The translations under genes and the position numbers were made by a program. Shown piece by piece: positions 13,490 through 43,072 of a stretch of 43,072 nt of DNA. The stretch spans positions 1-43,072 of the forward strand of contig CAZVVA010000002.1 of the NCBI GenBank assembly GCA_964630455.1, written 5' to 3'. The notes beneath the pieces are model-generated. The model made no database searches and was not told where the DNA came from. It worked only from the letters and a program-made list of their open reading frames with translations. Position 1 is the stretch's first letter; each line of letters starts with the position of its first letter. Source of the DNA: an uncultured Candidatus Sumerlaeota bacterium. Its GTDB lineage: Bacteria; Sumerlaeota; Sumerlaeia; MWCT01; JAUWMI01.

Positions 13490-16400
13490 ATGAAAAATCT
13501 CGCAGGGGTTGCTTTCTTAACCTTTTTCCTCCTGTGTAGCTTTGGACAGCCAGATGCTATAGCTACAAATCCCACTGCCCAAATAGAAGTAGAGCCATCT
13601 ACTACAGTAGAAGTAGGAGAAGAAGTATTATTTGATGCAACCGGCTCTGTTGATGATAAACCCTTAGTAGAAGGTAAATTTGAATGGCAATTTGGAGACG
13701 GATATACCTTAATGGAGGGATATCCATATTATTACATTTATGATGGTGGTATTACCTGCAGTCATTTTTATATGCAGCCAGGAACATACACTGTCACTTT
13801 AACTGTAACAGATATAGATGGAAACCAAGACACAGATACTAAGACCATGACAGTTATAATGTCTCTTTATGGCCCACCAAAAACTGATAATATAGAACTG
13901 CTTCATGCTAACTTCCATGGTCACATTGCCCAGTATATCTATGCAAGGATAGCTGATACTGCAACCCAGACCGCCAAGATAAAAGTTATGATAAAAGGTG
14001 ATAGTGGCTATGAGCAAGTTATACACCAAAGCCCTGCATCGGCAGGAGAAGAGATAAAATTCTTACTTAGAAACTCACTCCTTCCAGCTGGAAACTACTA
14101 TTTAATTGTTCAGCTGCTAGATTCTTCCGATGGATTGGTTGACCAAGTTTCTGAGAAATTCTCAAAACCCTATGATGGAATACCTCATGTAGGTATAGAT
14201 GAAAACAACGCCATCTGCATAGATGGTGTACCTTTCTTTCCTGTGACACCGTTTATAGTGACTGAAGGCTATGAAATGGATCACTATGCTGCTGCAAAAT
14301 TGATTAATACTCTTTATGCTGAAGGATGGTATCCGGGACATGATTTGGATACATGGAAAGACTATCTTAATGAAGGCTCTAATCATGATTTATATGTTAT
14401 AGGACCTAATGCATATTGGATGACTGATGTTCCTGCACGTAAATTTATGAGAAATGCTGACATTAATAATCTTGTTAATTATGTTACTGAAACAAAGAAC
14501 TACCCTGCTCTTTTGATGTGGGCGTATGTTGATGAACCAAGCCTAGGAGGCTGGGGAGCATATACACCACCTCCTGTTTTAAGAAGCTGGACTTATAAAA
14601 CTCATCAGCTTGATTCACAACATCTTGTAGCTGTTAATTTTTATGGATATTCTTATCTTCCGGGTATGAGTGGAACGCACTACACTATGATGAACAAGTA
14701 TAGTTATTATGGGGATGAGAGTCTTTCTATTTTTGGTAACGCTGAGGAGTTTGGCGGGAAAAGACAGCACGTTGTTGATGTAAATGGTTTTGATATTTAT
14801 CCCGTAGAGTTTGGAGTAACCATGGAAAGATATGCAATAGCAATAGATAACTTGATAGGATGGAATTACAATTTAATTCCTGCAATGTCTTTTATTGAAA
14901 CTCAGGATATTGGACAGAGTGCGGGATCACCATATGCACCAACAGCAGAGCAGATAAGAATGGAAAACTGGCTTAATGTTGTCCATGGCATTAAAGGAAT
15001 TAACTGGTTCCCACTTTTTAAACCAAGACCTGCTGAGAATGATGGTGCAATGGCAGAGTTTGTAAGACAAATAACAGCATTAACACCAGTAGTCTTAGGT
15101 CCAGAGCCAGAAAGAGGAGTTGTTGATAATGCCAATGTCTGGGGAAATAGAATAGATACAATGTTAAGAGAAGATAGTGAAAACATCTACATCTTTGCTG
15201 TAAGAATAACAGAGGTAGACGGAAGCACAGGCGGTCCTCATCCAGATGATGTCGGAGACAGAACAGTAACATTTACAGTTGAGGGCTTAACAGACAATAC
15301 AATTGTTTATGAGCCTGCAGAATTTATGAAAATTAGTTATGAAAATCATGGAACTCCGGCTGGAGGAAGGTATTTTAACTTTAATACAAATGCGCCCATT
15401 ACCCCAGGCACTCTACTTGTTGCAGGAAAGATAAATGAAGAATATTTTGGCTGGCGTTTCTTTTTTGATAATGGAGACGGAACACTTTACGGATTAAACT
15501 CTGGCATGACAGGAACAGTAAATTATGAAACAGGCCAAGTCTATGCTGACTTTGGAACATCTAATAATATCTATGCGGGTGAAGAATATGTAAGAGCAAT
15601 GTATCAGCCTAATCTTACTGATAGAATTGTAGGAATTATAACCGGAAATACATTCACAGACACATTTGCTCCCAATGATGTACATATATACAGAATACCT
15701 AAAGAACCTGCAACTGAACCAATAATAAGCGTTACACCAGCATATGGAATTAACTTTGGTAATGTTAATGTAGGTGAGTATAAAGATGAAACCTTCACAG
15801 TTAAAAACATGGGAGTAGGTATATTAGAAGGAACTGCATCTGTAGATTCTCCATTTAGCATTATATCAGGTGGAAGCTATTCTCTCTCAGCTGGTGAATC
15901 TCAAGATGTAGTGGTAAGATTTACTCTAGCAGAAGCTGGTTCAGTATCATCTACTATAACATTCACTGGTGCAGATGGTGCAACAAGGACTCTCTCCGGA
16001 ACAGGCGTTATAGTTGACACAGAAGCACCAACAGTACCAACAAACCTTGCAGCCACAGTAATATCAACTAGCCAAATAAACGTCTCCTGGAATGCATCCA
16101 CTGATAATGTACGGGTTTTAGGTTATAAGATATACAGAGATGGAGTTATGGTGGCAACATCTGCTACTATTAGCCACTCTGATACAGGTCTTAGTCCTTC
16201 TACTACATACACATACAGAGTATCTGCATATGATGCTGCTGGAAATGAATCTGATAAATCAACCCCTGTCTCTGCTACTACATTAGCTGATACAACCCCA
16301 CCGTCTATTGTATCAGTAACTGCACAAGAGACATCTGTTAATATTGTCTTTAGTGAGCCCATAAATAAATCGTCAGCAGAACGTAAAGAAAATTATAATA

Positions 16401-19805: not shown

Positions 19806-20732
19806 TTATTTTAGGCCAGCACGTATTCCCTTGAGTAGACTTTCGATCTGTCTTTCATCCATTCCTTTTAGCCGTTCAAAGAGATCCTTTCGAACCCTCC
19901 TGATAAGAGAAAACAGCACGGGATGAAGGTGCAGATATGCGGGCAGTGCAAGCACACGGGCGCCACGTTCGATCTTAAAATTATTCACGCTCTGTTTTGC
20001 AGATAACGTCCCAGTGTATATGCACTGGATATCTGATTGTTTAGCGGCACATATTCTGACCGTATGCAACATTAGCTCAGAGGAACGCAAATTCATCCCT
20101 TCAAGAGAATTCAAAGCGCTAAGGAGGAACAAAACATCTTTCACCAAGCAGTTTGTCCATATACTTACAAGCCCATTCTTGGAATAGGCACCCCAAATTC
20201 GTACCTTAGGGAAGCGAAATAGGAGCCGTGCCCAATCAGCAAATACCTTCTCATCGATCCGGTCTTTTCTGTATGAATAACCTGTCCGCTTATAGAAGGA
20301 AAGGTAAACTTGAAACCCTTCCTCAATAAGTTGATCCACACTTTTTATCAGACATACTGTTAAGCATTTGGATGGCTTTTGGATTCTTCGTCGGAAGCTC
20401 GACCCAAGACTGTTTTCCTTATAAGCTTGAGGTTGTTCGAAGACCAAAAGGTTCATATAAGAATTGTGTAGGTGTTTTGCAGACACAGGATGTTGAACCG
20501 CTGCAAATTTGCCAAAAGATCTTTTTGTCTCGCTAGTAGACAATTCCACAAAGGGAAACAGCGGCCTGTAGAAATATGGACGTACTCGGTGCCACCAAAT
20601 TTCCCCTTTCTTCTGGAGTTTTGCTCCCATTGCTTTTTCAAATTCGGCGTACTCGTCTATGCTCATGCGCTTCCACAAGGGCATTGCGTCTATTGCAGTG
20701 TTTTCAGAAAGCCTCTGAGTCAGTGTTCTCAT
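19806..20732 (-). CDS. Fem/GNAT-fold acyltransferase-like protein, paralog A
   Basis: The protein is 308 aa and is clearly paralogous to 21573..22439: 'MSIDEYAEF..AMGA', 'FYRPLFPF.EL', 'FADWAR.LFRFPKV', 'NKFKIERGARVL..PAYLHLH'. The '..FK...GA' tail resembles Fem/GNAT (COG2348-like) proteins. It shares an ATGA overlap with the upstream methyltransferase stop. Confidence 0.5.
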   Translation of the reverse strand: MRTLTQRLSENTAIDAMPLWKRMSIDEYAEFEKAMGAKLQKKGEIWWHRVRPYFYRPLFPFVELSTSETKRSFGKFAAVQHPVSAKHLHNSYMNLLVFEQPQAYKENSLGSSFRRRIQKPSKCLTVCLIKSVDQLIEEGFQVYLSFYKRTGYSYRKDRIDEKVFADWARLLFRFPKVRIWGAYSKNGLVSIWTNCLVKDVLFLLSALNSLEGMNLRSSELMLHTVRICAAKQSDIQCIYTGTLSAKQSVNNFKIERGARVLALPAYLHLHPVLFSLIRRVRKDLFERLKGMDERQIESLLKGIRAGLK

Positions 20733-21572: not shown

Positions 21573-22439
21573 TTATCTACACATTGTAGTTTTCATTTTG
21601 TTTTGCACCTGTCTTTCATCCAATCCTATCAGTCGATGGTACAGACTTTTTCGGGCGAACTTGATCAAAGAAAGAAGCCCACGATGAAGATGTAGATAAG
21701 CAGGCATAACAAGAACGCGCGCCCCTCGCTCGATCTTGAACTTGTTTAAACTCTCTTTCTGTGCGAGCCATCCAGAATATATACATTTGATTCCCTCATG
21801 CTTTGCAGCAAAATCTCTTATTGTGTGAAGCATCAGCTCCGGCGACTGCAATTCAAGCGCTTCACCAGAATTGATGCTGTCTAGATAAAATAGGGTATCT
21901 TCCACTAAGCAGGTGATGTCGATTTGCACCAATTTATTCTGGGAATATGCCCCCAGGACTACAACTTTGGGAAAGCGAAATAGGCTACGAGCCCAGTCGG
22001 CAAATATTCTTGGATTTCTTCGATCGCTCTTGTAGGAGAAATGTGTCCGTTTATAGAAACATAGGTACACAGGATACCCTTGAGCAGTAAACTCCTCCTG
22101 ATCAAGTATGGGACGTATCGTCAGACGTTTGTACGTCTTCAAGATTCTTCTTTTATTAACCTTTGGCAAGGTACTGAGTTTATATGAGTCCGGCTGTTCG
22201 TAAACGATGAAATTCATGTGAGAATTGCAGGTCTCTCCTCGAGGAACTGCATGTTGCATAGCACCCAGGCATCGCGGATGTTCGTCTACATCTCGAGAGG
22301 TCAATTCTAAGAAAGGGAAGAGCGGGCGATAAAAGAAAGGATGCTGTTGTTGCCACCAGACCCCATTTTTTTGCCGGAGATTTGCTCCCATTGCCCTGTT
22401 GAACTCAGCGTATTCATCTATACTCATTCGTTGCCACAT
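21573..22439 (-). CDS. Fem/GNAT-fold acyltransferase-like protein, paralog B
   Basis: The protein is 288 aa and is collinear with paralog A over its whole length (motifs listed there). Confidence 0.5.
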   Translation of the reverse strand: MWQRMSIDEYAEFNRAMGANLRQKNGVWWQQQHPFFYRPLFPFLELTSRDVDEHPRCLGAMQHAVPRGETCNSHMNFIVYEQPDSYKLSTLPKVNKRRILKTYKRLTIRPILDQEEFTAQGYPVYLCFYKRTHFSYKSDRRNPRIFADWARSLFRFPKVVVLGAYSQNKLVQIDITCLVEDTLFYLDSINSGEALELQSPELMLHTIRDFAAKHEGIKCIYSGWLAQKESLNKFKIERGARVLVMPAYLHLHRGLLSLIKFARKSLYHRLIGLDERQVQNKMKTTMCR

Positions 22440-23697: not shown

Positions 23698-24801
23698 CTA
23701 ATTGTGGCCGAAGTCCGCAATTGCCGCAGTCACAGTTTCAATTTGCTCGGCGCTTAATTCGGGATATATAGGCAAAGAGAGGAGTTCCTGGACGCACTTT
23801 TCAGTCACTGGAAACGAGCCCTTTTGATAGCCGAGGGACGCGTATGCTGGCTGTAAATGAATTGGAACTGGGTAGTGAATTCCACAGTGAATACCTTTTT
23901 TAGCCAAAGCATTTTTCAGATTGTCCCGATTTCTTGTGCGAATTGCATATATGTGATAAACATGTCTTGCATACTCTGCTTCCGTGGGAATTACCATGCT
24001 TGAGTTCTCAAGCAATTCATTGTAGCGCCGTGCACAGGTGCGTCGTGCTTTGTTCCACTCGGATAGATATTTCAATTTTACACTCAGAATAGCGCCCTGA
24101 AAACCGTCCATGCGTGAATTCCATCCGATCCACATGTGTTCATGTTTCTGCTTTTGGCCGTGATCGCGGAGCATGCGAATTCTTTCTGCAAGGGACGCAT
24201 CGTTTGTGACTATAGCGCCCGCCTCGCCGTATGCACCGAGGTTCTTGCCCGGGTAAAAGCTAAAACATCCCGTGCTACCCAGGGAGCCCGCAGGCTGTCC
24301 TTTGTATTGAGCCCCATGTGCCTGGGCTGCATCTTCTACGACATAGAGACCTTTTTCCTTTGCCGTTGCCAGAATTGCGTCCATATCGGCAGTGTGACCA
24401 AATAGATGAACAGGAATGATGGCTTTTGTCTTTTTCGTAATCACTGATTTCAGCAAATCAGGATTCATGTTGTAGGTTTGCTCATCAACATCTACGAAAA
24501 CGGGCCTAGCGCCAGTGAAACTAATAGCTTCTGCTGTGGCAATGAACGAATTCGGGGCAGTGATCACTTCATCCCCGGAACCAATTCCAAGAGCGAGAAG
24601 ACTTAGCCAAAGCGCTTCCGTGCCACTGCCCACACCCACGGCAAACTTGCAGCCACAAAATGAAGCAAACTCTTTTTCAAATCTTGCAACAGCCGGACCG
24701 CTTGCAAATGCGGTGTCGTCCATAACCCGCGTTAATGCTTCGTGTATCTCATCTCGGATTGTAGCATATTGTACTTTCAAGTCTAGAAATGGAACAGTCA
24801 T
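23698..24801 (-). CDS. DegT/DnrJ/EryC1/StrS-family PLP-dependent sugar aminotransferase
   Basis: N-terminus 'VPFLDLKVQY..IRDEI', 'GSGTEAL', and PLP-lysine region 'CFSFYPGKNLGAYGEAGAIVTND'. The protein is 367 aa. Confidence 0.9.
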   Translation of the reverse strand: MTVPFLDLKVQYATIRDEIHEALTRVMDDTAFASGPAVARFEKEFASFCGCKFAVGVGSGTEALWLSLLALGIGSGDEVITAPNSFIATAEAISFTGARPVFVDVDEQTYNMNPDLLKSVITKKTKAIIPVHLFGHTADMDAILATAKEKGLYVVEDAAQAHGAQYKGQPAGSLGSTGCFSFYPGKNLGAYGEAGAIVTNDASLAERIRMLRDHGQKQKHEHMWIGWNSRMDGFQGAILSVKLKYLSEWNKARRTCARRYNELLENSSMVIPTEAEYARHVYHIYAIRTRNRDNLKNALAKKGIHCGIHYPVPIHLQPAYASLGYQKGSFPVTEKCVQELLSLPIYPELSAEQIETVTAAIADFGHN

Positions 24802-25280
24802 TTCTTCTTCTCCTCATTGATTCTGCGCATAATTCGAGCAGGATTTCCGGCGACGATTGTAAACGGTGGAACATCTTTTGTCACAACACTTCCCGCACCC
24901 ACAATAGCCTTCTCGCCAATTGTGACTCCGCATAGTAAAGTGGTACTCGAACCGATTGAGGCTCCTTTTCTTACCAGGGTTGGCACGCAGACCCAGTCTT
25001 CATCTGTCTGCAATGTACCATCTTCTTTAGTTGCATGGGGAAACGCATCGTTAATAAAGGTCACATTATGTCCGATGAACACATTGTCTTCGATAGTTAC
25101 CCCTTCGCAAATAAATGAATGACTCGAAATCTTGCAATTTTTACCTATTTTGCTTCCTTTCTGGATCTCTACGAAGGTCCCGATCTTCGTATTATCGCCA
25201 ATCTCGCAGCCATAAAGATTCACGAAGTCATAAATTTTGACATTCTTGCCAAGCTTAACGTCAGAAGCGATATTTTTCAT
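24798..25280 (-). CDS. Left-handed beta-helix (hexapeptide repeat) sugar N-acetyltransferase
   Basis: Hexapeptide repeats 'IGDNTKIGTFVEIQKGSKIGKNCKISSHSFICEGVTIEDNVFIGHNVTF' and 'IGSSTTLLCGVTIGEKAIVGAGSVV'. It shares an ATGA overlap with the downstream DegT start. Confidence 0.85.
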   Translation of the reverse strand: MKNIASDVKLGKNVKIYDFVNLYGCEIGDNTKIGTFVEIQKGSKIGKNCKISSHSFICEGVTIEDNVFIGHNVTFINDAFPHATKEDGTLQTDEDWVCVPTLVRKGASIGSSTTLLCGVTIGEKAIVGAGSVVTKDVPPFTIVAGNPARIMRRINEEKKK

Positions 25281-25283
25281 TCG

Positions 25284-25739
25284 TTAAGACCGTTTAAGGA
25301 AATCTATGATTATTTGTTCAATACTACATTTTGGAGGAACATAGCACTTAAACTCTAAACTTCGTACCTTCATTAATACATCTTTTAGTTTATCAAGATC
25401 TTTGCACCATATTAGATAGCCCTCGCGCGACAACTTCTCCAGAATTTCGTCTTGATGTTTATCAGGGATATTCGGATTACTGACGCCAACAAACTTTACA
25501 TGCCGACGAAGTAACTCGAAAGTTGTTCCTACGCCACCAGAACCCACTACCAGCGTCGCTTCCTTAAAATAGTGGTCTAGGGAGGGCGCTAGGCGAAACC
25601 ATTCGCAATTATGAGGCTCATATTTCCCCGTGGCTATCTGCATAATAACTGGTTCATCGATCAACGGCACAAGTTCATCCATACGTTGTATGAGCTGATC
25701 GTTGCCTACATTAGAACTGCCAACAGTAACGAAGATCAT
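25284..25739 (-). CDS. Alg13-like (GT28 C-terminal domain, PssE/Cps14G-type) glycosyltransferase subunit
   Basis: 'MIFVTVGSS...' is followed by 'LVVGSGGVGTTFELL', as in the catalytic half of split UDP-sugar transferases. Start ATG 25739 overlaps the TAA of the upstream gene (TAATG); the track start at 25868 lies inside that gene. Confidence 0.7.
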   Translation of the reverse strand: MIFVTVGSSNVGNDQLIQRMDELVPLIDEPVIMQIATGKYEPHNCEWFRLAPSLDHYFKEATLVVGSGGVGTTFELLRRHVKFVGVSNPNIPDKHQDEILEKLSREGYLIWCKDLDKLKDVLMKVRSLEFKCYVPPKCSIEQIIIDFLKRS

Positions 25740-26326
25740 TAGAATGGTCTCCCAGCGTAAATTGCGCGAGGATAGAGCGTAAGCTGTTCTTCCCATTGGA
25801 CAAAGAAAAGATCCGCAAAGAGATGATACGCAACAAAGCCAGATAAGGATCGGCTCTTTATACGGCAAGCTGACTCAATGAATATTGTCTTTCGGCGCAA
25901 AAGCCAAGCAGCAAACATCACCGCTAGCGCACCACCACTACCGTTGGTAATTATGGCATGTGCGCGAACTTTTTTTAACAGCCTTATGGATTGTATAACG
26001 CTGGGCATAAAGCAAATTACTTTTCTCATCAGGGAACATACACCGCCGGCTCTTATTGAGCGTAGGCTTGGCCAAATTTTGTAAACTGGCCCGGGGACGC
26101 GAATTTTGTGTTTGGTTAACAGGTCATCCTTGCAAATAATGTAGGATATTTCTATTTCAGGGGCGAACCTATCTGCAAGAGCCAATATTTCAAACGCATG
26201 ACCTCCTGCCATTAGGACAACGGTTACGGATATCTGGCTCTTCGGCGTCCTTCCGTTGTGTGTGGGAATTTCTTCTTTTTGTCCCGGTTTCAATAGCAAG
26301 TCAGAAGTCTCATTTGTCTTCCGCAA
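25739..26326 (-). CDS. Alg14-like (PssD/Cps14F-type) glycosyltransferase membrane-anchoring subunit
   Basis: 'VVLMAGGHAFEILALADRF', 'IITNGSGGALAVMFAAWLLRRKTIFIES..R.KS.SLSG' and 'ADLFFVQWEE' match the Alg14-like family layout. It is paired with an Alg13-like partner. Confidence 0.7.
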   Translation of the reverse strand: MRKTNETSDLLLKPGQKEEIPTHNGRTPKSQISVTVVLMAGGHAFEILALADRFAPEIEISYIICKDDLLTKHKIRVPGPVYKIWPSLRSIRAGGVCSLMRKVICFMPSVIQSIRLLKKVRAHAIITNGSGGALAVMFAAWLLRRKTIFIESACRIKSRSLSGFVAYHLFADLFFVQWEEQLTLYPRAIYAGRPF

Positions 26327-32317: not shown

Positions 32318-33625
32318 TTATTCGCGCTTATGTACTGTTTGTACTTGTGTTTGGTTCAAATAAACGATACCCGGTATAGCTCCACACAGGCCTAGCAAGA
32401 TATAGAATAAGTTGCCTGATTGGTCAAACAAAGACACAGTATTTATTGCTACCAATATACCGGTAACCGAAGCCAGCAAGCACCAGATCATCCACTGATC
32501 AGCCTTGTTGTGGCTAGCCAAGACAAGGGCTCTTCGCAGCCGAATTAACGATGCAACTATGACAGCCAAGAAAGGCAAAAGCCCCAGCAGTCCGAAGCGA
32601 GCCAGTCTGCCAATGTATTGATTAACAAGATCCCAGTGTTCCCAAGGAATACGGTTAGTATGTATCCCTACCAGTCCATAGCCTTCGACCCAATGACCCG
32701 TCATCCCACCGCCGAGAGCCTCCTTTATAAGACCGATTCGATAGTAGGCTGTTGCGGGGCTGAATGTAAGGCCGGCCGGAACTTCGTAGAAGTGCCTGTT
32801 GCTGAACACCTCAACAAAAATACATGCAGCAACCAACACTATAAGAAAAGCAGGCCAATAACGTCTAATTGGAAACATTGAAAGCACAAGTAATGCCACT
32901 AAACCTGCAAGGATCGGTGCACTGGAAGCAGATGATACTATGCCAACCAACATTAATCCAATCCCTGTAGCAATAGCCAGCCGATGACGCTTCGCATGTC
33001 CCCACAAGCCTGCACAGCACGGCGCAAGTATGGCAAAGAAAAGGCCAAAGAGAATGCAAACTGAAAACGTTACCTCTGCACGATACAAACCATATCTGAC
33101 GTACGTACGAGCTTCTCCGGGTCTCCACGCGCTATATTGATGAAGAAATCCAACCGGATTATGACCGGTGAGACTCTGATAAGCGCCAACAATAGCCAGC
33201 GGGGCGCCAATAATTAAAAAGCCTTTCAGAAGCGTCAAGAATTGCTCTCGAGAAGTTACAATTACCCGCACCGCAAAATACGGGAGCAACGTGTTGAAGG
33301 CCGTTCCACTGCGGTTTTCTACTATTTTCCAGAATGGCTCGTTCATCAAACCAGCTATAACGGTACCAAGGAGCGCGATGATAATAAGCCGGTCGAGCCA
33401 GCACCACTTAAATTGCTGCGCCATTTTGGTTCGGAACAAGATATTGGCGTATAGTGCAAGGATTACTATTCGGCTCGCAGAAAAATCAAGCGTGCCCACC
33501 TTCAATGTTAAATACGAAGGATACCACCCAAGAACCGCCACATAAATAATAAGTCCCAGAATTGGACGAACAGAGAACGCAGCCAAAGAGCCTATTGCGG
33601 CTATTAATAATGTTAGCGGCTCCAC
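32318..33625 (-). CDS. wzy: O-antigen ligase/polymerase-like membrane protein (Wzy-type)
   Basis: The protein is 435 aa with ~11 TM helices and a central loop region ('HAKRHRLAIATGIGLMLVGIVSSASSAPILAG') resembling the Wzy_C/O-antigen ligase domain. The EPS context supports the call. Confidence 0.65.
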   Translation of the reverse strand: MEPLTLLIAAIGSLAAFSVRPILGLIIYVAVLGWYPSYLTLKVGTLDFSASRIVILALYANILFRTKMAQQFKWCWLDRLIIIALLGTVIAGLMNEPFWKIVENRSGTAFNTLLPYFAVRVIVTSREQFLTLLKGFLIIGAPLAIVGAYQSLTGHNPVGFLHQYSAWRPGEARTYVRYGLYRAEVTFSVCILFGLFFAILAPCCAGLWGHAKRHRLAIATGIGLMLVGIVSSASSAPILAGLVALLVLSMFPIRRYWPAFLIVLVAACIFVEVFSNRHFYEVPAGLTFSPATAYYRIGLIKEALGGGMTGHWVEGYGLVGIHTNRIPWEHWDLVNQYIGRLARFGLLGLLPFLAVIVASLIRLRRALVLASHNKADQWMIWCLLASVTGILVAINTVSLFDQSGNLFYILLGLCGAIPGIVYLNQTQVQTVHKRE

Positions 33626-33716: not shown

Positions 33717-34901
33717 TCAATAGTAATGGAGCTTTGTATATTGCCTTAGCAGCGACCTTGCCATTGGAAATCTATTCTTCCATAGTGTTAGTGGTTCTCG
33801 CAGCTGCTTCTGAGAGAGGAGCTGATAAACAAGAACTTTGGCTCTTGCCTTTTGGATCTTACCCACAAGGGCTTTCTGATATGTGAGTACGTCGGCTCGT
33901 GTGGTTTCTCTAAGGCTGATAGCGCCGCACTTTTCTGCCGATCGAATGTTATCCTTCGCACGTTCACTTCTTACCACAACCAGCGATAGTCCTCTTTGTT
34001 CCGAGGCAATGAGTTCTTTGCCCCACGGATCACCGACCGATACGTCCGCAGCATCGGCAAATGTGTCGAAACACAGCATGCACCTGATTGCTGGATTGCT
34101 TGCAACAAGGTGACGCCAGGCATCCATGTATGGCCTTTTAAGCAATATCTTGCGACCGTTCGATGCCCGGAACAAACCAGGCCAGCCGTGCCCCCGATAT
34201 TGAATCTTCCGCACGTCTTGAAATCTCACACCCCATCGGGAGAGAAAAGATGCTGTGTTGCTCCGCGGAGGAGTGCATGCACAAAAAATTCCTATGGATA
34301 AGCGAACTTGTTTTTTCAGTTCAGGGACAAGATCTTGCAATTTGCGCAAAGCCTGAATTTCACACGGCTTCCCAACAAATGCGTAGTTTCCTGGTTTCTT
34401 TATTATTTGGTCAAGGGTCGTACAATTTGAAACCGGACCATATCTGGAGCCACGCGCCGCCAGAATCCCTTTCTCATCAGTAGCAAGAAACGACCGGTTC
34501 AAAAGCGGATCGGAATCATCTCCGCATGCTACTACCGCTCCGTCTATCTCTTGCGCGCGCAGCAGATAGATCAAGAACGCCGATATAAACCCTCCTGAAG
34601 ATCCTTCTGTCCGTATTGCATCGTCATTAGCATGAGCAATCCAGTAGTCATGGAAATCATTTAAACATGACACATGAAGTTTTTCATTTAGGTTTTTCAG
34701 CAAGTGCGTGCTAGGACATACATCAATGCATTTTCCACACTTTATACATGCGTCAGCCTGCACTTGAGGATAGTTGAAGTGCCGGCCACTGATCATTTCT
34801 ATGCATGCCTGCGGACATATGACGGTGCAACCGCCACAGCCGCAGCAAATTCGCTTTTTGACAATCAAACTGATATTTTGACCGGTTATCTTCATTGCCA
34901 A
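33717..34901 (-). CDS. FrhB-like (coenzyme F420 hydrogenase/dehydrogenase beta subunit family) Fe-S protein
   Basis: It has two ferredoxin-type clusters, 'CCGCGGCTVICP' and 'CIKCGKCIDVCP' (CxxCxxCxxxCP), followed by an FrhB-like body. It overlaps the upstream pyruvyl transferase by 10 nt. Confidence 0.75.
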   Translation of the reverse strand: MAMKITGQNISLIVKKRICCGCGGCTVICPQACIEMISGRHFNYPQVQADACIKCGKCIDVCPSTHLLKNLNEKLHVSCLNDFHDYWIAHANDDAIRTEGSSGGFISAFLIYLLRAQEIDGAVVACGDDSDPLLNRSFLATDEKGILAARGSRYGPVSNCTTLDQIIKKPGNYAFVGKPCEIQALRKLQDLVPELKKQVRLSIGIFCACTPPRSNTASFLSRWGVRFQDVRKIQYRGHGWPGLFRASNGRKILLKRPYMDAWRHLVASNPAIRCMLCFDTFADAADVSVGDPWGKELIASEQRGLSLVVVRSERAKDNIRSAEKCGAISLRETTRADVLTYQKALVGKIQKARAKVLVYQLLSQKQLREPLTLWKNRFPMARSLLRQYTKLHYY

Positions 34902-36214
34902 TTCATACTGAACTCTTGGATCTCTGCAAAAAGATTTAGCACGCGCTTCTTCACGTCAGGCATGGTCCGCTCCAGATGATTTCTAATGGTGTCTCTTTCT
35001 GTATATGCTCTATTAATGACACCGAGTATTTCCTGTTCTTCCATTTTCCGAGGATCTGCTACGCAATCTCCAAGTTCGATCGAGTCCGTAACACCTTTGA
35101 ATTTCTTACTGTATGCGATAGCCACAGTTGGAATATTCTGCGAAAGTGCCGCGATGCATGCATGCATACGTGATCCAATGAAAAAGTCCAACATTCCAAT
35201 AACGTACTTGATTTCGTTCTGATTATAGGTTTCCCGAACGACTTGGATTCGGCTTCCATACTTCGCTCTAAGCAAATCATAAACCTGGGCACATACTCCC
35301 TGGTCGCTTTCTATATGCTCTGGGGGATGGAAAGCGTGTGGCACAAGCAGGACAATCGTATTCTCCTTCTGCATCATCAAAGTGATAACTTTGAGAATCA
35401 TTTGTCGGTAATCAACTTTTAATCCAAACATATTGTTGCGGGTGTAGCCCCCGTTATAAAGCAGGCCGCTGATGTTAAGCCCAACCACGATACACTTCTT
35501 GTCGCGTGTTTTGAGAAGGGACCCAATGTCAATGCTATCTGGCTTTGCTGGCTCAAGCACGAATCCTACATCGTAGCAAAACCGAGCCTTTCCATTGGCG
35601 ATACGCCTTTTTAAAGAATTTACATATTCGCTCAGACCAATACGGTCTCTGGAATAGATTATGGTGGTACGGTTCAAAATATATGTGGCAATAGCTTTGG
35701 CCAGGATACCTTTAAAGGGTCCGATAGTTTGCGGCAACAGAACGAAATTTTTCCTCAGCATGATAGCAAGCATTTTGGGAAGGGATACGTAAAAGAACCT
35801 GCTCTTGCCGTAAATATCGCTAAAACTGTCTCCGCCACTGATGTCCGCCACAATGTCGGCATTCAATAGCGTTTTAAGGCAATTGTTGTTCTTAACTATA
35901 CGTTTTCGAACAAACGGAATCGGTATCAGCTTCAGAATACACGAAAGTAATAAAAGCATGGCAATATTATTCTTAAGATAAAACTTTTTGGAAAACCTCA
36001 TATTTACCAGGCGCACAGTGGTTTTCTTATCCCCAATTATTAACTTGTAGTCCTTTGGCTGATATGCGTAGTCCAGAATTGCAACTTCCGCATCGGGCAA
36101 TTGCGCCAGAACGCACTTTATTGTAGCATGGGTAAGCGCACTAACCCCCATATTGCCCGTCTCAAACGAAACACCCATTAGGCAGACCTGTTTTGTTTTT
36201 ACATCCGGTTTCAT
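34892..36214 (-). CDS. Polysaccharide pyruvyl transferase family protein
   Basis: The protein is 440 aa. 'ISGGDSFSDIYG', 'LPQTIGPF' and the C-terminal 'GSRMHACIAALSQNIPTVAIAYSKKF' are typical of PS_pyruv_trans proteins. Pairing with an FrhB-like gene is a known association. Confidence 0.7.
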   Translation of the reverse strand: MKPDVKTKQVCLMGVSFETGNMGVSALTHATIKCVLAQLPDAEVAILDYAYQPKDYKLIIGDKKTTVRLVNMRFSKKFYLKNNIAMLLLLSCILKLIPIPFVRKRIVKNNNCLKTLLNADIVADISGGDSFSDIYGKSRFFYVSLPKMLAIMLRKNFVLLPQTIGPFKGILAKAIATYILNRTTIIYSRDRIGLSEYVNSLKRRIANGKARFCYDVGFVLEPAKPDSIDIGSLLKTRDKKCIVVGLNISGLLYNGGYTRNNMFGLKVDYRQMILKVITLMMQKENTIVLLVPHAFHPPEHIESDQGVCAQVYDLLRAKYGSRIQVVRETYNQNEIKYVIGMLDFFIGSRMHACIAALSQNIPTVAIAYSKKFKGVTDSIELGDCVADPRKMEEQEILGVINRAYTERDTIRNHLERTMPDVKKRVLNLFAEIQEFSMNWQ

Positions 36215-37387: not shown

Positions 37388-38449
37388 TCAAGTCAATAGC
37401 CTTTTTTCTGCAAACTTAGATTGGCTATCAAATACATCCGGATCAATCGCAATCGGGCTTCCGCCATTCTTTAAGGATTTATTCGCCGCTTCAAGCACCG
37501 AGACGACGCGCAGTCCACTCGCGCCGTTAGATATTGGTTCCGTGCCATTGCCGATGCATTCGATAAAATGCTGGCATACCTTTTTGAGCGGTTCCGTCTC
37601 TTCCAACCGCGGGCTATAAATATCGCCGTACCTGTAGGAAAAGTGGAAATCACCAAAAGTTTCGTAGTGCGCCGGAACTTCGACACCCTTGTCATAAATC
37701 TTGATTTTCTCCAATGGGTCAACGTCGTCGTAAACCAGCATCTTCTTACTACCCACGATTGTGATTTTCCTAATTTTGTTCGGATGCAGCCAGCTACTCT
37801 GAATGTAGACGCCAAGGTTGTCAGAGAAATTGAGACCGAGCGCTGCTACGTCCTCAATGTCTGGCTTGAGGTGTGCCTTGCCTTGCCCACTAACGCTTTC
37901 CGGCTGCTGGTCAAGCAGATAGAGAACAATCGATACGTCATGCGGCGCCAGATCCCATACGACGTTGATATCATTTTGAAACAGACCAAGATTTACCCGG
38001 ACACAATCAATATAATATATTTTCCCAAGCTCTCCACTCCGGATAATTGCTTTTACCTTGTTGACCGCAGCCGTGTACTCAAAAGTATGGTCTACCATTA
38101 GCGTCCTGCCATGCTTAACGGCAAGCCGAATAAGTTCTTTACATTCCTTGACCGACGCAGTTATAGGCTTTTCAAGCAAAACGTGTTTGCCGCGTTGCAA
38201 GCATTGCTGAGCCATGGGAAAGTGCATTGCAACAGGCGTTGCGATTGCCACCGCATCAATGTCGTCATTGTTGAGAATGTCCTGAAAGTCGCTGGTCACT
38301 GCGACTGACGGATATAGGCGTTGTATGTATTCCAATCGATCTGGCTTTGCGTCACACGCCATTGTCATGACACACTGGGGAAGAGAACAAAAATTGCGAA
38401 TCAAGTTAGGGCCCCAATACCCGCACCCCACTACTGCAACTTTAATCAT
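37388..38449 (-). CDS. Gfo/Idh/MocA-family NAD-dependent sugar(-nucleotide) oxidoreductase (WbpB/WlbA-like)
   Basis: Rossmann 'MIKVAVVGCGYWGPNLIRNF' and 'HVLLEKPITASVKECKELI' (EKP motif). ATG 38449 was chosen; the track start at 38500 would overlap the upstream gene. Confidence 0.85.
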   Translation of the reverse strand: MIKVAVVGCGYWGPNLIRNFCSLPQCVMTMACDAKPDRLEYIQRLYPSVAVTSDFQDILNNDDIDAVAIATPVAMHFPMAQQCLQRGKHVLLEKPITASVKECKELIRLAVKHGRTLMVDHTFEYTAAVNKVKAIIRSGELGKIYYIDCVRVNLGLFQNDINVVWDLAPHDVSIVLYLLDQQPESVSGQGKAHLKPDIEDVAALGLNFSDNLGVYIQSSWLHPNKIRKITIVGSKKMLVYDDVDPLEKIKIYDKGVEVPAHYETFGDFHFSYRYGDIYSPRLEETEPLKKVCQHFIECIGNGTEPISNGASGLRVVSVLEAANKSLKNGGSPIAIDPDVFDSQSKFAEKRLLT

Positions 38450-38456
38450 TTGCTTT

Positions 38457-39788
38457 TCATCCTTCCTGGCAGCTCGCCATTGATTTCGAGCCAATCCCAA
38501 TACGAAGTACCGTGGGAATGGTCTTCGCCAAAATCTTTATATCTGTCCAAAAGGAGAGATTCTTCATATATCGAAGGTCCACACGAACCATTTCGTCGAA
38601 TGTCATGGCGTTCTTGCCGTTAACCTGCCAAAGTCCAGTAATTCCCGGAACTATATTTAGGCGCTGTTTGTGCCAATCCTGATAATCTTCCACCTCGTAT
38701 TGGATGGGTGGCCTGGGACCGATTAATGACATTTCTCCTCTCAACACGTGTATCAATTGCGGTAATTCATCAAGACACCATGCACGAAGCAATCGCCCCA
38801 ATTTTGTAACCCGCGGGTCGTTACGAATTTTTGTCATCGGCTTATCGGATCCGTTGCCATTGCCGTTGCATATCAGTTCCTTGAGATGTTCTTGATGGAT
38901 TGATTCGTCAGCGTGCGTTCGCATTGAGCGAAATTTCAGGAATTGGAACTGTTTACCCAGGTAGCCGACTCGCTTTTGCCTGAAAAAAATCGGCCCTCGG
39001 GAAGTCATTTTGATTAATAGCGCAACTAAGAACATGATGGGAGAAAGTATCAGCAGCCCAAACGAAGCCCCCAGTATATCTATTGTGCGCTTCCACCTGG
39101 GAAGACAGTATGCGAGTAGCTGAAACAGTTTTCCCGGGTGAACGACTTGAATCTCGTTCAGGAGTTGTGCTGTATGAAGAGAAGTTGCACATGAGCCACT
39201 CTCTATATCAGAAGGTGCCATTGTTTGGCGGGATGTTTGAGAGTCGGCATCCTGGGTGGTCTCTGAGCGCACAGGTCGGTTTTCGTTACTTTGGGCCCGA
39301 TTTGCATCAAGACGGGAATCATCTCGGTCGGAAGAATTATGGTTGCCAGGGTACCAATACATTTTCGAAACAAGCCACATCGAATCTCCGCCTACACTGT
39401 GTACCTTCAACAAATGCTTTTTAAAAGACGCTTCAACTTTTTCAACAACCTGGAGCGCGCCTTTTCGAAGCGTATCTGGCAAAATAATTCCAACCCATTC
39501 TTTGCCATCTTCACGATGCCAGCCCCGCGTATCGCTGGCTCTGGTGCATTCTTGTATAAGTTTAGCCAGATAAGCTAAGCCCCGGATACGGTCGTCTCTT
39601 TTCCCCGACGTGCAGCGCACATCAAACACAAGAAGCACGAAGGGCGAGTTGCTCCGTTCAGCACGCAGCTTCTCCCTCTTCAGCTGCCCATTAAAGGCCT
39701 CAGCACTCCAGAGATCCGGAATGTCAGAGCGGATGCCTGTGCGCTTTCCTGAGCCAGATATCAGCCAACGGAGAATTCTCGATGGCAC
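38457..39788 (-). CDS. Polyprenyl-phosphate sugar-phosphate transferase (Bac_transf/WbaP-EpsB type) with an N-terminal degenerate GGDEF-like domain
   Basis: The C-terminal ~215 aa hold a TM helix 'ILGASFGLLILSPIMFLVALLI' followed by 'RGPIFFRQKRVG..GKQFQFLKFRSM', 'DPRVTKLGRLLR...DELPQL..VLRGEMSLIGPRP'. The N-terminal ~135 aa resemble a GGDEF fold (see finding). Confidence 0.85.
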   Translation of the reverse strand: MPSRILRWLISGSGKRTGIRSDIPDLWSAEAFNGQLKREKLRAERSNSPFVLLVFDVRCTSGKRDDRIRGLAYLAKLIQECTRASDTRGWHREDGKEWVGIILPDTLRKGALQVVEKVEASFKKHLLKVHSVGGDSMWLVSKMYWYPGNHNSSDRDDSRLDANRAQSNENRPVRSETTQDADSQTSRQTMAPSDIESGSCATSLHTAQLLNEIQVVHPGKLFQLLAYCLPRWKRTIDILGASFGLLILSPIMFLVALLIKMTSRGPIFFRQKRVGYLGKQFQFLKFRSMRTHADESIHQEHLKELICNGNGNGSDKPMTKIRNDPRVTKLGRLLRAWCLDELPQLIHVLRGEMSLIGPRPPIQYEVEDYQDWHKQRLNIVPGITGLWQVNGKNAMTFDEMVRVDLRYMKNLSFWTDIKILAKTIPTVLRIGIGSKSMASCQEG

Positions 39789-39834
39789 GCGTCTTCTTCC
39801 TTTCGCTGAAAGTTTCTATTTCGAATCTTTGCGA

Positions 39835-40527
39835 TCAAAGATGTTTGTACAGCACTTTGGGAATGTGGTACCGCTTCTTATTTAGAACAACTCCGAGTAT
39901 TTTAGCACCGGAACTCATAATTGCCCTTTGCGCGTGTTGTACAACTTCACGCCGAGTACGTTCGGCTTCTAGCACCAAAACAGTGGCGTCTGCTTTTGTC
40001 GGCAATATGAGCGAGCCGGCAGAGTCAATCACCGGCGGACAGTCAAGCACTACCATGTCGTAGTTTCTTTTGGCCTCCCGCAAAAAATTGCTAAACTCCC
40101 CACTGCCGAAAACACGCCAGGGCTTCAACGTCTCCTTCCCTGCAAAAAGGACGTCAAGTCTCTGGCCAATGCGATGTACTGGCCACGGAAGGTCAGACTC
40201 TGTTGTAAGCGCCTCGACTAATCCTGGAGCTCGCTGTGCTTGTAAGAGTGTATGCAACCAGGGGTCCTTAATATTACAATCAACCAGTAAAACAAATCGT
40301 TCGCGATCCTCAGCAATCGTTAGAGCAAAGCTTGTTGCCACCGTTGTGACCCCCTCGCCCGCATGGCAGCTGGTGAATGCCAGGACAGATGGCACGTAGG
40401 CCCTGCCATCCATGGAAGCCATGACTGCATGCTTTAGCGCGCCGCACTGTTCTTCCATTCGGTTGGGGATCTTCCAGCTGATGATGATTCCGTCCCCTAT
40501 CTTGGCGGTAATCATTTTGTTACTCAT
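39835..40527 (-). CDS. BY-kinase-like (CpsD/CapB/EpsG-type) P-loop protein with a degenerate Walker A
   Basis: Walker A' 'VLLVDCNIKDP' and Walker B 'YDMVVLDCPPV' are present. The Walker A position reads 'TSCHAGEGVTTVA' instead of the usual '..GEGKS/T..'. It overlaps the upstream Wzz-like gene by 8 nt. Confidence 0.7.
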   Translation of the reverse strand: MSNKMITAKIGDGIIISWKIPNRMEEQCGALKHAVMASMDGRAYVPSVLAFTSCHAGEGVTTVATSFALTIAEDRERFVLLVDCNIKDPWLHTLLQAQRAPGLVEALTTESDLPWPVHRIGQRLDVLFAGKETLKPWRVFGSGEFSNFLREAKRNYDMVVLDCPPVIDSAGSLILPTKADATVLVLEAERTRREVVQHAQRAIMSSGAKILGVVLNKKRYHIPKVLYKHL

Positions 40528-42124
40528 GAGACAGTAACCTCTCGTTTCTCCCGGGCTGGCCTGTAGCTAATAATAACTCCCGTTTTCTCACCTTCGGTAT
40601 AGTAGCAAGAACGGGTAGTCCCAAACGACGTTCAACTTCCTCATTCGTTTTCAGGGAGTGATCAAAATACTCTATAACAAAGGCAAAGCCTATGCTTCCG
40701 AAAAATGCGATGAATAATCCGATAGCAATCATGCGCGTTTTCCTTGGCTTGACCGGTGCCACTGGCAGAGTAGCGGGCTGTAAGATTTTAACATTAGAAA
40801 CATGTGCACTGTCCAGAGCGGCCGAGATTTCAGTAGCCTGCAGGTTATCGAGGTACTTCAGATATTCCTGTTCGCTCAGGCTGATATTACGCTTCATCTT
40901 TGTAAACTCTCCTTCAAGTGCTGAAAGTTCATTGAGGGACTTTTCTCGTTTCGCCAACTCCCCAGCCAAGGATTCCTTTCTCGCCCGGAGTGATGCCAGA
41001 TGGGCTTGCTCGCTTTTCATTGTGCTTTCTAGCGCCGCCTTATCGGTATCAATCCCTGTAAGTGCTCCAGATTTCTTTTCCTTCTCCCTTGCGATCAATG
41101 ATCGTGTAACTTCGATTTGTTGCTTGATATCGCGCATCTCCTTTGAATCTTCCGGATATTTTGCAGAAATTTCCGCTTGCTTGAACATTAGCTCAAGTAA
41201 CCTTGTGTTCAGTATTCTTGCCAGCTCACCAGGAACTGCTGTTGAAGCTTCGGAATTCTGTTTCGCAGGCTTTTCTAACTCCTCCTTGAATGAGGAGATC
41301 ATGGCAAGCGATCCATTGATTTCGGCGTTCATATCATAGAGGCGGGCCTGTAAATCATCCACCTGAGCCAGCAGTCCGTATTCTTGCTCTTCAATGTTGA
41401 TTATGCCATGCGTTTTACAGAATTCTTCGAATTCAGCTTGGCCACGTGCGAGCTGAGCTGCAAGAGCAGCACTGCGTTCGCTAAAGAACTGCGAGGAAAC
41501 TTCTAACCGAAAAACATCAATATGGCGCTTCATATAGATACGCAAAAGTGTGTCAAGTACACGCTGCGCGAGATGAGGATCCGTTGCTGTAAAACCTACT
41601 GAAATAATGCTTCCTCTATTTTTCGCAGTGAGATTATTCATCACCCTGTTGATAACTCTCTCGCGGAGTGGAATTTCAGAAGGGGTTTCCAGCTGAGCAA
41701 TTTGCGTGCGAGGAAGTTTTGCAACCTCTCCCTTTGCGTTCGCAAGGAAGGCCTCTAACCCAATCTGATCAACTGTCTGCGCAGCAACGATATGACTTTT
41801 CAGAATTGTAATTTCAGATTCCATCTGGTCCCGATAGCTGGTAGTCCCGCGTCCTTCTCCGCTTCGAATCACCGGATCATCAGAAAGCATTTCGCGTCCG
41901 ATCCGAACCATTATCTTCGCTTGCGATTCATAAGTTTTTGACGTACGAGAAGCCATGAATGCTGCAGCACCGACAATGATGACAAAACACAGCAGGATTT
42001 TCCATTTTTGCCGAAACAGGGTGCGAAAGAAGTCACGTCGCGACTGTTCGGGAACTTCTGAGATGTCTCGTAGATACGGGTTCCCATGCATTGGCACGTT
42101 TGATTTTAATTCCATCGGCTCCAT
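40520..42124 (-). CDS. Polysaccharide co-polymerase / chain-length determinant (Wzz/GumC family)
   Basis: The protein is 534 aa with an N-terminal TM ('ILLCFVIIVGAAAFMA') and a C-terminal TM ('MIAIGLFIAFFGSIGFAFVI') flanking a long coiled-coil periplasmic region. The Wzz-like N-terminal block reads 'YESQAKIMV'. Confidence 0.8.
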   Translation of the reverse strand: MEPMELKSNVPMHGNPYLRDISEVPEQSRRDFFRTLFRQKWKILLCFVIIVGAAAFMASRTSKTYESQAKIMVRIGREMLSDDPVIRSGEGRGTTSYRDQMESEITILKSHIVAAQTVDQIGLEAFLANAKGEVAKLPRTQIAQLETPSEIPLRERVINRVMNNLTAKNRGSIISVGFTATDPHLAQRVLDTLLRIYMKRHIDVFRLEVSSQFFSERSAALAAQLARGQAEFEEFCKTHGIINIEEQEYGLLAQVDDLQARLYDMNAEINGSLAMISSFKEELEKPAKQNSEASTAVPGELARILNTRLLELMFKQAEISAKYPEDSKEMRDIKQQIEVTRSLIAREKEKKSGALTGIDTDKAALESTMKSEQAHLASLRARKESLAGELAKREKSLNELSALEGEFTKMKRNISLSEQEYLKYLDNLQATEISAALDSAHVSNVKILQPATLPVAPVKPRKTRMIAIGLFIAFFGSIGFAFVIEYFDHSLKTNEEVERRLGLPVLATIPKVRKRELLLATGQPGRNERLLSHE

Positions 42125-42232
42125 TCTTCCACCTCTTGCTGAACCAAGCGTTTTAACCTGGTCTACTGCGTCACTGGTCTATTTGGAAAAGCATGCTACT
42201 GACCTAATACCTCTTTATGTTGACGATGGAAA

Positions 42233-42937
42233 CTACCAAGCCCCAATAGGTATCCGGGGCAGCATCCTATTGATATACTGATCAACCCACTGGTTAATCT
42301 TGTTAATTCTGGTGCGCGGCACGTAAACAATATCCATAGGCTTAAGGTAAAACGAATCGCTCTCCTTGCCTTTAACCACGTCTCGCAGGTCGAAAGCCCC
42401 TCCGTACCAGTTTCCTTCATCCTGGCGCATTACGATAACATTCGATAATTTCGCACTCTCTTTGATAAATCCACCAGCCTGTATAATAGCCTGGAGCAAC
42501 GTAATGTTACCGTTTAGCGGGAGTGCTCCGGGCGTGCCCACCTCCCCACCAACAAAAATTTGCTGGCTGGCAAGTGTGCGCACTATCACGCTGACAGAAG
42601 GTTCTTTAAGGTATGGCGTATATAGCCTTTCAAGCTTGAGTATGAGTTCGTCTGGAGTGAGACCCTTTACCTCGACGTCATCAACCATCTGGAGGGTAAT
42701 TTTCCCATCTGGCCGAATGGTCAGGCTCTCGTTCAGGTCCGGAGTATAATAGAACTTGATTTCAATCTCGTCTCCTGGCGCAAGTCGCACCTCTTGGGGG
42801 ATAGTCACGCCTCTTATGCTGGTATCCAGAGGCATGGTTTGTAGACTCAATGTGGCAGCACATGCAACAAGGAGTAAGAGGCACGGAGCACTGGCAATCA
42901 GGGCAACCGTACGAAAAACTCTTGAGATGTTTTTCAT
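42233..42937 (-). CDS. Outer-membrane polysaccharide export lipoprotein (Wza-like; Poly_export + SLBB domains)
   Basis: ATG 42937 is preceded by GGAGGG, and the lipobox is 'LLLVAC'. Poly_export block: 'LAPGDEIEIKFYYTPDLNESLTIRPDGKITLQMVDDVEVKGLTPDEL'. SLBB block: 'FVGGEVGTPGALPLNGNITLLQAIIQAGG'. Confidence 0.85.
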   Translation of the reverse strand: MKNISRVFRTVALIASAPCLLLLVACAATLSLQTMPLDTSIRGVTIPQEVRLAPGDEIEIKFYYTPDLNESLTIRPDGKITLQMVDDVEVKGLTPDELILKLERLYTPYLKEPSVSVIVRTLASQQIFVGGEVGTPGALPLNGNITLLQAIIQAGGFIKESAKLSNVIVMRQDEGNWYGGAFDLRDVVKGKESDSFYLKPMDIVYVPRTRINKINQWVDQYINRMLPRIPIGAW

Positions 42938-43072
42938 AAAACCCTCCAGCGATTTTGCCTTTGGTAAAACCACAACCAAATCAACTTACATGGTGTCTGC
43001 AGATAACTTTTCGCAGGATACTTTTGCCTAATCGTCAGTGCAGCAAGCAAACACCTGGTTAAGCAGCAACAA

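Follow-up and report, generated by a model that had tools for sequence, protein, structure and literature searches.

A GGDEF-like domain joined to a priming transferase

The window analyzed here, a complete NCBI contig of 43,072 bp (CAZVVA010000002.1, from an uncultured Candidatus Sumerlaeota bacterium), carries on its minus strand a block of genes for an extracellular polysaccharide (EPS): Poly_export, Wzz/GNVR, a P-loop protein resembling bacterial tyrosine kinases (BY-kinases), a phosphoglycosyl transferase (PGT), a GFO/IDH/MocA oxidoreductase, family 2 glycosyltransferases (GT2s), a pyruvyl transferase, FemAB-like proteins, deacetylases, a DegT aminotransferase and a hexapeptide acetyltransferase. 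A Wzx-like flippase is encoded on the plus strand. The subject of this work is the PGT, a protein of 443 amino acids (aa) in which the catalytic domain (Bac_transf) of a priming transferase is preceded by a degenerate relative of the GGDEF domain of diguanylate cyclases. The features under discussion are collected in Table 1.

Table 1. The transferase gene, its parts and its neighbors (positions in the window)
Feature	Position	Strand	Basis and remarks
Poly_export/SLBB gene	42233-42979	-	Pfam; upstream, same strand block
Wzz/GNVR chain-length protein gene	40520-42124	-	Pfam; upstream block
P-loop BY-kinase-like protein gene	39835-40527	-	Pfam; upstream block (39835..42979)
Shine-Dalgarno-like AGGAAG	39796..39801	-	Read from sequence; 7 nucleotides (nt) 5' of GTG
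GGDEF-like::Bac_transf priming PGT gene	38457..39788	-	443 aa, GTG start; open reading frame (ORF) list and Pfam domains
Degenerate, truncated GGDEF-like domain, aa 25-150	39339..39716	-	Order alpha1, beta1, alpha2, beta2, beta3, alpha3, beta4 (profile, AlphaFold2 (AF2), Foldseek)
Helix alpha1 motif E39-x2-R42-x2-R45	39654..39674	-	hmmalign mapping
RxxD tetrad R83-A-S-D86 at the I-site position	39531..39542	-	Equivalent to PleD R359/D362 and WspR R242/D245
Family-specific G89-W90, right after RxxD	39519..39524	-	hmmalign mapping
Site of the lost GG(D/E)EF, R92-E93-D94-G95-K96-E97-W98-V99, 3-residue insertion	39492..39515	-	hmmalign against PleD and WspR
K117 at the third cis I-site position	39438..39440	-	Equivalent to PleD R390 and WspR K273
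Low-complexity S/T/N/Q/D/E-rich linker, ~78 aa (aa 151-228)	39105..39338	-	Composition; low confidence (pLDDT) in single-sequence AF2
Sole hydrophobic segment, aa ~238-262, with S249-P250; predicted re-entrant membrane helix	39003..39077	-	Hydropathy scan, motif positions
Bac_transf (PF02397) catalytic core, aa 233-428	38505..39092	-	Pfam E 2.1e-65
Catalytic Asp-Glu dyad D340-E341 in LDELPQL	38766..38771	-	Residue-for-residue alignment with WbaP LDELPQL
GFO/IDH/MocA oxidoreductase gene, best match UDP-GlcNAc (UDP-N-acetylglucosamine) 3-dehydrogenase	37388..38500	-	Downstream; same neighbor in the metagenomic loci L008, L013, L014 and L016

The identical protein is present in both NCBI and JGI and is nameless in every source. 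Its GTG start, together with the register of the upstream peptide, is kept in two Candidatus Sumerlaeota orthologs (~90% identical, from metagenome-assembled genomes), and a single-protein scan for related loci gave matches limited to these two close orthologs. Because AGGAAG precedes the GTG, the long form of the protein is favored over a start at M137. One public gene call of the same 443-aa protein (P0007, on a 1.5-kb contig in Logan) does take M137 as its first residue and so lacks the entire GGDEF-like domain, which shows that the GGDEF-like::Bac_transf architecture can escape annotation pipelines. The coordinates given in the original prediction, an earlier reading made from the letters of the window alone, are exact (aa 25-135 correspond to nt 39384-39716, RASD at aa 83-86 to 39531-39542, and EDGKEW at aa 93-98 to 39495-39512). 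A search within the 43-kb window for a second copy of the degenerate domain found none.

The C-terminal half is an ordinary and apparently functional monotopic PGT (monoPGT) with an intact core (D340-E341, the Ser-Pro helix and GPRP). The Pfam match to Bac_transf clears its cut-off of 27 with 220.1 bits and spans model positions 1-178 of 179, while the match to the NCBIfam model EPS_sugtrans (E 1.6e-81) is limited to the C-terminal part. The NCBIfam models for WbaP, WcaJ and EpsZ are matched over their C-terminal ~190 positions only, with scores far below the cut-offs. Among proteins of solved structure the transferase half matches WbaP (E 2e-43) and PglC (E 2e-37), and alignment with these structures shows that the GPRP motif is kept. 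The large monoPGTs of the WbaP type are thus homologous in the catalytic core (as the E-value against the WbaP structures indicates), but differ in what precedes it: WbaP has four N-terminal transmembrane helices and a nucleotide-binding accessory domain, whereas here there is a GGDEF-like domain instead.

A hydropathy scan found no hydrophobic segment before aa 238. The one segment that was found aligns with the WbaP segment preceding the catalytic core; monotopic PGTs of the PglC/WbaP type are recognized by a single hydrophobic helix, re-entrant and broken by Ser-Pro, and its presence would place all sequence N-terminal of it, the GGDEF-like domain included, in the cytoplasm. The arrangement that had been read from the sequence – a linker rich in serine and acidic residues, leading to a membrane helix and then to an intact Bac_transf core – is upheld by composition, hydropathy, Pfam and the WbaP alignment. 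A full-length AF2 model made from the single sequence has a predicted local distance difference test score (pLDDT) of 43 overall and is uninformative about the PGT core and the packing of the domain; the order alpha-beta-alpha-beta-beta-alpha-beta is seen for aa 29-146.

Fold, lost catalytic features and retained I-site residues

The original prediction held that residues ~25-135 form a GGDEF fold. From the single sequence alone the resemblance is suggestive and not significant: PF00990 (GGDEF) matches aa 31-128 with 17.5 bits (E 0.0038), below its gathering score of 23.8; TIGR00254 reaches 14.7 bits against a cut-off of 37.4; and the best three PDB sequence matches, although all GGDEF domains, are weak (E 0.19-0.73). 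An Abi_2 match in Pfam (E 0.07) was dismissed as noise. A word-indexed homolog search with aa 1-172 found nothing; phmmer, run with the same residues over 1.84 billion representatives, returned 186 proteins at E<=1e-3, with bona fide GGDEF proteins among them.

A domain alignment of 55 sequences (A2) was used as the family profile and for an AF2 model of the domain. Searched against the PDB with hmmsearch, the profile matched 33 solved GGDEF chains (best 3ign, E 5.7e-13), and the lone non-GGDEF chain matched weakly (E 0.25). The AF2 model built with the family alignment has a pLDDT of 92.2 and a predicted template modeling score (pTM) of 0.87. When it was compared to the PDB with Foldseek, the top 50 matches were all GGDEF, with a probability of 1.00 and template modeling scores (TM-scores) of ~0.7 (query-normalized 0.54-0.74); they include cyclic diguanylate (c-di-GMP)-bound GcbC, WspR, DgcB, PleD and PelD. 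Because the family profile, the AF2 model and Foldseek all point to GGDEF, the assignment of aa 25-150 to this fold is secure. Lack of a significant GGDEF-fold match was to count against the original prediction; profile and structure both give one, and of the checks that had been proposed, AlphaFold yields GGDEF structural matches while Pfam PF00990, applied to the single sequence, does not reach its gathering score. As other palm-domain families, GGDEF_2 (PucR-type) and the Cas10 palm were weighed and rejected, being matched by only 4 and 2 of the best 150 members, respectively, against 31 for GGDEF; the structural top matches are all GGDEF proper.

To place individual residues, PleD and WspR were aligned to the family hidden Markov model with hmmalign (the PleD sequence and numbering, and the WspR numbering, were checked), and conservation was counted over 278 family domains. 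Since members had been collected by similarity or profile, sequences that keep the signature are favored and the counts are somewhat inflated. R92-E93-(DGK)-E97-W98-V99 corresponds to PleD G368-G369-E370-E371-F372, with a 3-residue insertion in the beta2-beta3 hairpin; once the insertion is placed there, the line-up with PleD given in the original prediction proves to be in the correct register. Across the family the former GG(D/E)EF columns are variable and gapped. Compared to PleD and WspR the FKxxNDxxGHxxGD stretch is ~5 residues shorter and the equivalents of its Asn and Asp are gone; of the PleD residues that bind guanine and metal (D327, N335 and D344), the metal-binding Asp D327 has an equivalent here in D56, which is kept in only 180 of the 278 domains. 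The domain ends after beta4, without alpha4-beta5, and the Pfam match spans model positions 14-113 of 161. The catalytic GG(D/E)EF is therefore destroyed, as had been claimed, and the determinants of GTP binding are gone as well. Because GG(D/E)EF, the guanine-binding FKxxND..GH..GD segment and alpha4-beta5 are all lost, no synthesis of c-di-GMP is expected: to the extent that sequence can tell, cyclase activity of the degenerate domain is excluded with high confidence.

Residues of the I-site, the site of product inhibition in diguanylate cyclases, have survived. R83 is retained in 277 and D86 in 273 domains, and alignment with PleD R359/D362 bears out the claim that an RxxD survives at the I-site position; the tetrad sits five residues before the former GGDEF hairpin, as it does in I-site receptors. 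On helix alpha1, E39 (equivalent to WspR E192) is kept in 264 domains, R42 (PleD R313) in 260 and R45 (WspR R198) in 274. Immediately after the tetrad, G89 (PleD C365, WspR A248) is kept in 272 domains, and W90, which replaces PleD R366 and WspR R249, in 254. The I-site residues R359/D362/R313 of PleD and R242/D245/R198 of WspR are documented c-di-GMP contacts (PMC2270323, PMC7288161); among them PleD R313 and WspR R198 are arginines supplied in trans by a second GGDEF domain, an intercalated c-di-GMP dimer cross-linking the two (PMC7288161, PMC2270323). Judged from the counts, the strongest constraint in the domain family is that on R83xxD86 together with R42 and R45 of helix alpha1. The family has, in sum, kept the product-binding face and discarded the enzyme, and this is the strongest argument, albeit an indirect one, for c-di-GMP binding.

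The family comprises at least 186 clusters at 50% identity, most of whose members are annotated as hypothetical, and no Pfam or NCBIfam model reaches threshold on the stand-alone members. Family members are either Bac_transf fusions or stand-alone proteins of ~150-225 aa. A survey of Bac_transf fusions had been proposed: among the best 150 of the 186 matches, 42 carry Bac_transf beside the degenerate GGDEF domain, no other output domain recurs, and 31 give a GGDEF match at E<=0.01, a few of these being genuine GGDEF enzymes. Calculated against the two orthologs, and with the small counts available, the ratio of nonsynonymous to synonymous substitution rates (dN/dS) is lowest in the catalytic core (0.17-0.19), intermediate in the domain (0.32-0.45) and highest in the linker (0.64-1.2).

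Eight of 269 collected family proteins have two domains in tandem: P0038, P0051, P0061, P0085 and P0100, which are fused to Bac_transf, and P0111, P0125 and P0139. RxxD is present in both copies in seven of the eight, and the full E-R-R...RxxD-xx-GW pattern is present in both copies except for the second copy of P0085. Free and fused copies are also found side by side in metagenomic EPS loci (L008:6001-6612/7768-8913; L014:6769-7347/8500-9645; L013:7130-7747/7750-8976). L008 and L014 repeat the order of the window, Poly_export-GNVR-P-loop-[domain]-GFO_IDH_MocA-Bac_transf, with the domain as its own gene, and in L013 the free domain lies immediately upstream of the PGT. The occurrence of paired free and fused copies suggests two domains working as a pair.

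Near its C-terminus the domain carries Y-W-Y-P (aa 144-147; 39347-39358, minus strand), an instance of a family motif, Y-x-Y-P, that is foreign to canonical GGDEF domains (Y146 is present in 74% and P147 in 85% of a first alignment of 150 domains). By analogy with the tyrosine phosphorylation known for CapM/CapB1, the motif could be a target of the BY-kinase-like protein encoded by the adjacent gene (39835-40527).

The domain as a candidate c-di-GMP receptor

The protein is accordingly a small monotopic PGT whose cytoplasmic N-terminus is a truncated, dead GGDEF domain, and the most likely role of that domain is that of a c-di-GMP receptor for the enzyme: a reading in which we place about as much trust as doubt. 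In function the domain looks like a degenerate-GGDEF I-site receptor of the PelD/PopA type; in structure it is a smaller derivative that lies outside curated models. PelD, of the Pel system of Pseudomonas aeruginosa, is likewise a dead GGDEF fold with RxxD that controls an exopolysaccharide post-translationally, and PelD structures appear in the Foldseek list from rank 32 (TM-score ~0.55). PelD is, however, a separate inner-membrane protein with transmembrane helices and a GAF domain, and serves a synthase-dependent pathway, whereas the domain described here is smaller (ending after beta4), has no GAF domain and is fused to a priming transferase of the Wzx/Wzy type. The PelD site consists of R367/D370 plus R402; here a Lys takes the place of the third Arg, at a position that the family does not conserve. 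As to PleD and WspR, RxxD and the alpha1 arginines align position for position, but their I-site inhibits the cyclase of the same domain, while here there is no cyclase and the sole attached output is a PGT. What is already known, then, is the I-site receptor domain; what is new is its output, the priming transferase.

Listeria PssE, Bacillus YdaK and Caulobacter HfsJ are c-di-GMP-responsive components of EPS or holdfast synthesis; two of them, PssE and YdaK, belong to EPS operons and act as I-site receptors through a degenerate GGDEF domain. They are alike in that c-di-GMP acts on proteins of EPS biosynthesis; to our knowledge none of the three is a priming PGT or is fused to one. Control of the initiating monoPGT itself is documented for two Wzx/Wzy-type pathways, by EpsW~P acting on EpsZ in Myxococcus xanthus and by CapB1 acting on CapM in Staphylococcus aureus. 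In both the control is direct, but the inputs come in trans (a phosphorylated response regulator and tyrosine phosphorylation, respectively), while here the putative receptor is built into the enzyme; moreover, EpsZ is a large PGT of the WbaP type, whereas in the enzyme of the window a small core is preceded by a soluble domain. As cases of post-translational PGT control a 2025 mBio study lists only the tyrosine phosphorylation of CapM and the action of EpsW~P on EpsZ; according to the same study, c-di-GMP control is known for synthase-dependent pathways and not for Wzx/Wzy (PMC12802240). A literature search found no priming transferase with a degenerate-GGDEF fusion, characterized or described, in agreement with what had been supposed when the gene was first read, and a 2024 PNAS/bioRxiv paper on monoPGT annotation leaves GGDEF, c-di-GMP and fusions unmentioned.

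If the domain is a receptor, then its mode of action may be envisaged as follows. c-di-GMP, probably as an intercalated dimer, would be bound by R83 and D86 (with K117) of one domain and by R42 and R45 of a second; the second domain would come from the other PGT protomer or, in other genomes, perhaps from a tandem copy or a stand-alone paralog. Binding would alter the oligomeric state or the orientation – that is, the pairing – of the PGT cores, which are tethered by the ~78-aa flexible linker, and the step in which undecaprenyl phosphate receives its first sugar-phosphate would be switched, most likely on at high c-di-GMP; this sign of regulation is a guess from analogy. That the domain occurs in tandem, alone and fused is in keeping with a cross-linking unit made of two domains. 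A precedent for dimer-dependent activity of a monoPGT exists in EpsZ, which is activated by its partner EpsW~P stabilizing the dimer: in the model for EpsW, the regulator promotes the active EpsZ dimer (PMC12802240). That a c-di-GMP dimer bridges the RxxD face and the alpha1 arginines of two dead-GGDEF domains, and in so doing assembles or disassembles the active PGT dimer, and that this would be the first direct second-messenger control of Wzx/Wzy-type priming, is a proposal that we advance tentatively, with rather more doubt than trust.

Undecaprenyl phosphate is scarce, and it is the priming PGTs that commit it to one glycan; few cases of their post-translational regulation are known. A receptor built into the PGT would, if real, close this gap for the Wzx/Wzy pathways, and would be directly testable by means of the soluble 130-aa domain. 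The product-inhibition site of diguanylate cyclases, stripped of its enzyme, would have been reused as a portable switch for ligand-dependent dimerization. In uncultivated lineages, Sumerlaeota among them, the uncurated family is also a marker of EPS loci, and it represents a minimal GGDEF fold that keeps only the I-site.

Several points weigh against c-di-GMP binding, in addition to the sub-threshold Pfam score and the inflation of the conservation counts. The position of PleD R390 is Lys here and is basic (K/R) in only ~28% of the family, so that the pocket differs from the canonical I-site. The conservation of E39, R42, R45, R83 and D86 could reflect an intramolecular network of salt bridges instead of contacts to a ligand. 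Finally, among the annotated ORFs of the 43-kb window there is no diguanylate cyclase or phosphodiesterase (GGDEF, EAL, HD-GYP).

Foremost among the other explanations, although unlikely, is that the dead GGDEF fold is a protein-protein module that acts without a ligand, either dimerizing the PGT or docking a partner – the adjacent BY-kinase/Wzc-like pair, the stand-alone paralog or a diguanylate cyclase – so that the conserved Arg, Asp and Trp form an interface. Such pairing of domain with domain is compatible with the sharing of loci by free and fused copies and with the existence of tandem copies, and it would not call for conservation of the PleD R390 position. The Y-x-Y-P motif beside the BY-kinase-like gene fits a docked kinase, with tyrosine phosphorylation of CapM as precedent; moreover, large monoPGTs need to dimerize, and in the case of EpsZ activation comes from a partner protein (PMC12802240). 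Yet the invariant residues are the exact set that contacts the nucleotide in the I-sites of PleD and WspR, which is unexpected for a protein interface, and where GGDEF domains are known to pair through these residues it is c-di-GMP that mediates the pairing.

It is improbable that the domain senses another nucleotide, be it GTP, pGpG, another cyclic dinucleotide such as 3'3'-cGAMP, or UMP or a UDP-sugar as feedback from the pathway. Degenerate GGDEF domains can indeed bind GTP, those of GGDEF-EAL proteins such as PdeA being examples, and the pocket is non-canonical, with W90 instead of Arg before the former GGDEF and a variable R390 position; however, it is the GTP (substrate) site that is deleted or degenerate and the I-site face that remains. 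The combination of RxxD with an arginine in trans is, so far, a signature specific to c-di-GMP (PMC2270323, PMC7288161).

Very little speaks for the domain being a decaying remnant or an annotation artefact, with the functional enzyme beginning at M137. The 307-aa version starting at this residue occurs in the gene calls of one assembly (P0007), but lies on a 1.5-kb contig and is probably cut, while the frame is open, and both the GTG start and AGGAAG are kept in the orthologs. The dN/dS of the domain exceeds that of the catalytic core, but relative to the linker the domain is under purifying selection; membership in a family of at least 186 clusters whose motifs are near-invariant, and a confident AF2 fold, are likewise not what a remnant would be expected to show. 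That the domain is an active, unorthodox diguanylate cyclase supplying c-di-GMP locally can be practically dismissed: it has the fold in its favor and nothing else, with GG(D/E)EF absent here and variable family-wide, the guanine-binding Asn/Asp segment deleted, the metal-binding Asp poorly conserved, and alpha4-beta5, with its phosphate-binding residues, gone.

Loci of family members and other genes of the window

The best NCBIfam matches of the block upstream of the PGT gene are to export, chain-length and tyrosine autokinase models of the XrtA/PEP-CTERM type, all below the cut-offs. Free or fused, members of the family are tied to EPS loci of the Wza/Wzc type; the stand-alone ones are found beside Wzz/GNVR, BY-kinase and Poly_export genes. 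In one lineage, the main one of the stand-alone members (L003-L006, L009, L010 and L012), the gene lies between a nucleoside-diphosphate-sugar epimerase gene and genes for Wzz/GNVR, a BY-kinase-like protein, a sigma54 activator and exosortases. One stand-alone context, L007, has nothing to do with EPS, and another, L015, is too broken up for assessment. Two further proteins, P0235 (L011:8001-9288) and P0255 (L016:8001-9182), were rejected as stand-alone genes: both come from a nanopore assembly (ERZ26871208), are followed by fragmented Bac_transf genes and are fusions broken by frameshifts, with beta4 of the L011 domain carried on in a different frame.

The sigma54 activator encoded between the dead-GGDEF and Wzz/GNVR genes (L003:7820-8788 and L010:8957-9901) lacks a receiver domain and consists of Sigma54_activat plus HTH_8 (~320 aa); in L003 a gene for the exosortase EpsH is nearby. 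In L014 the gene for a small protein with a weak PilZ match (128-445, minus strand) lies upstream, at a distance of ~6 kb from the stand-alone dead-GGDEF gene, a faint further hint of c-di-GMP signaling around these loci.

The GFO/IDH/MocA oxidoreductase of the window (37388-38500), the hexapeptide acetyltransferase (24798-25280) and the DegT aminotransferase (23698-24801), all on the minus strand, resemble the set WbpB/WbpD/WbpE, which points to a UDP-2,3-diacetamido sugar. The same trio stands beside the domain or the PGT in L008, L013, L014 and L016, and hints at the donor sugar of the PGT.

Four ORFs that lie inside or close to the EPS cluster and encode 288-563 aa (32318-33625, minus; 8315-10006, plus; 19806-20732, minus; 21573-22439, minus) have no Pfam match, and the first two have no NCBIfam match either; one of the four may be a polymerase of the Wzy type. 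Elsewhere in the cluster a gene for a 4Fe-4S protein resembling FrhB/FdhB (the F420 hydrogenase beta-subunit family) overlaps that of a polysaccharide pyruvyl transferase (33717-34901 and 34892-36214, both minus), and a split glycosyltransferase pair similar to Alg13/Alg14 is encoded, with Glyco_tran_28_C and Alg14 as separate adjacent genes (25284-25868 and 25739-26326, both minus). The cluster is flanked by a gene (13481-18223, plus strand) for a protein of 1580 aa that combines PKD, fn3, Ig-like and Laminin_G_3 domains and is presumably secreted or located at the surface.

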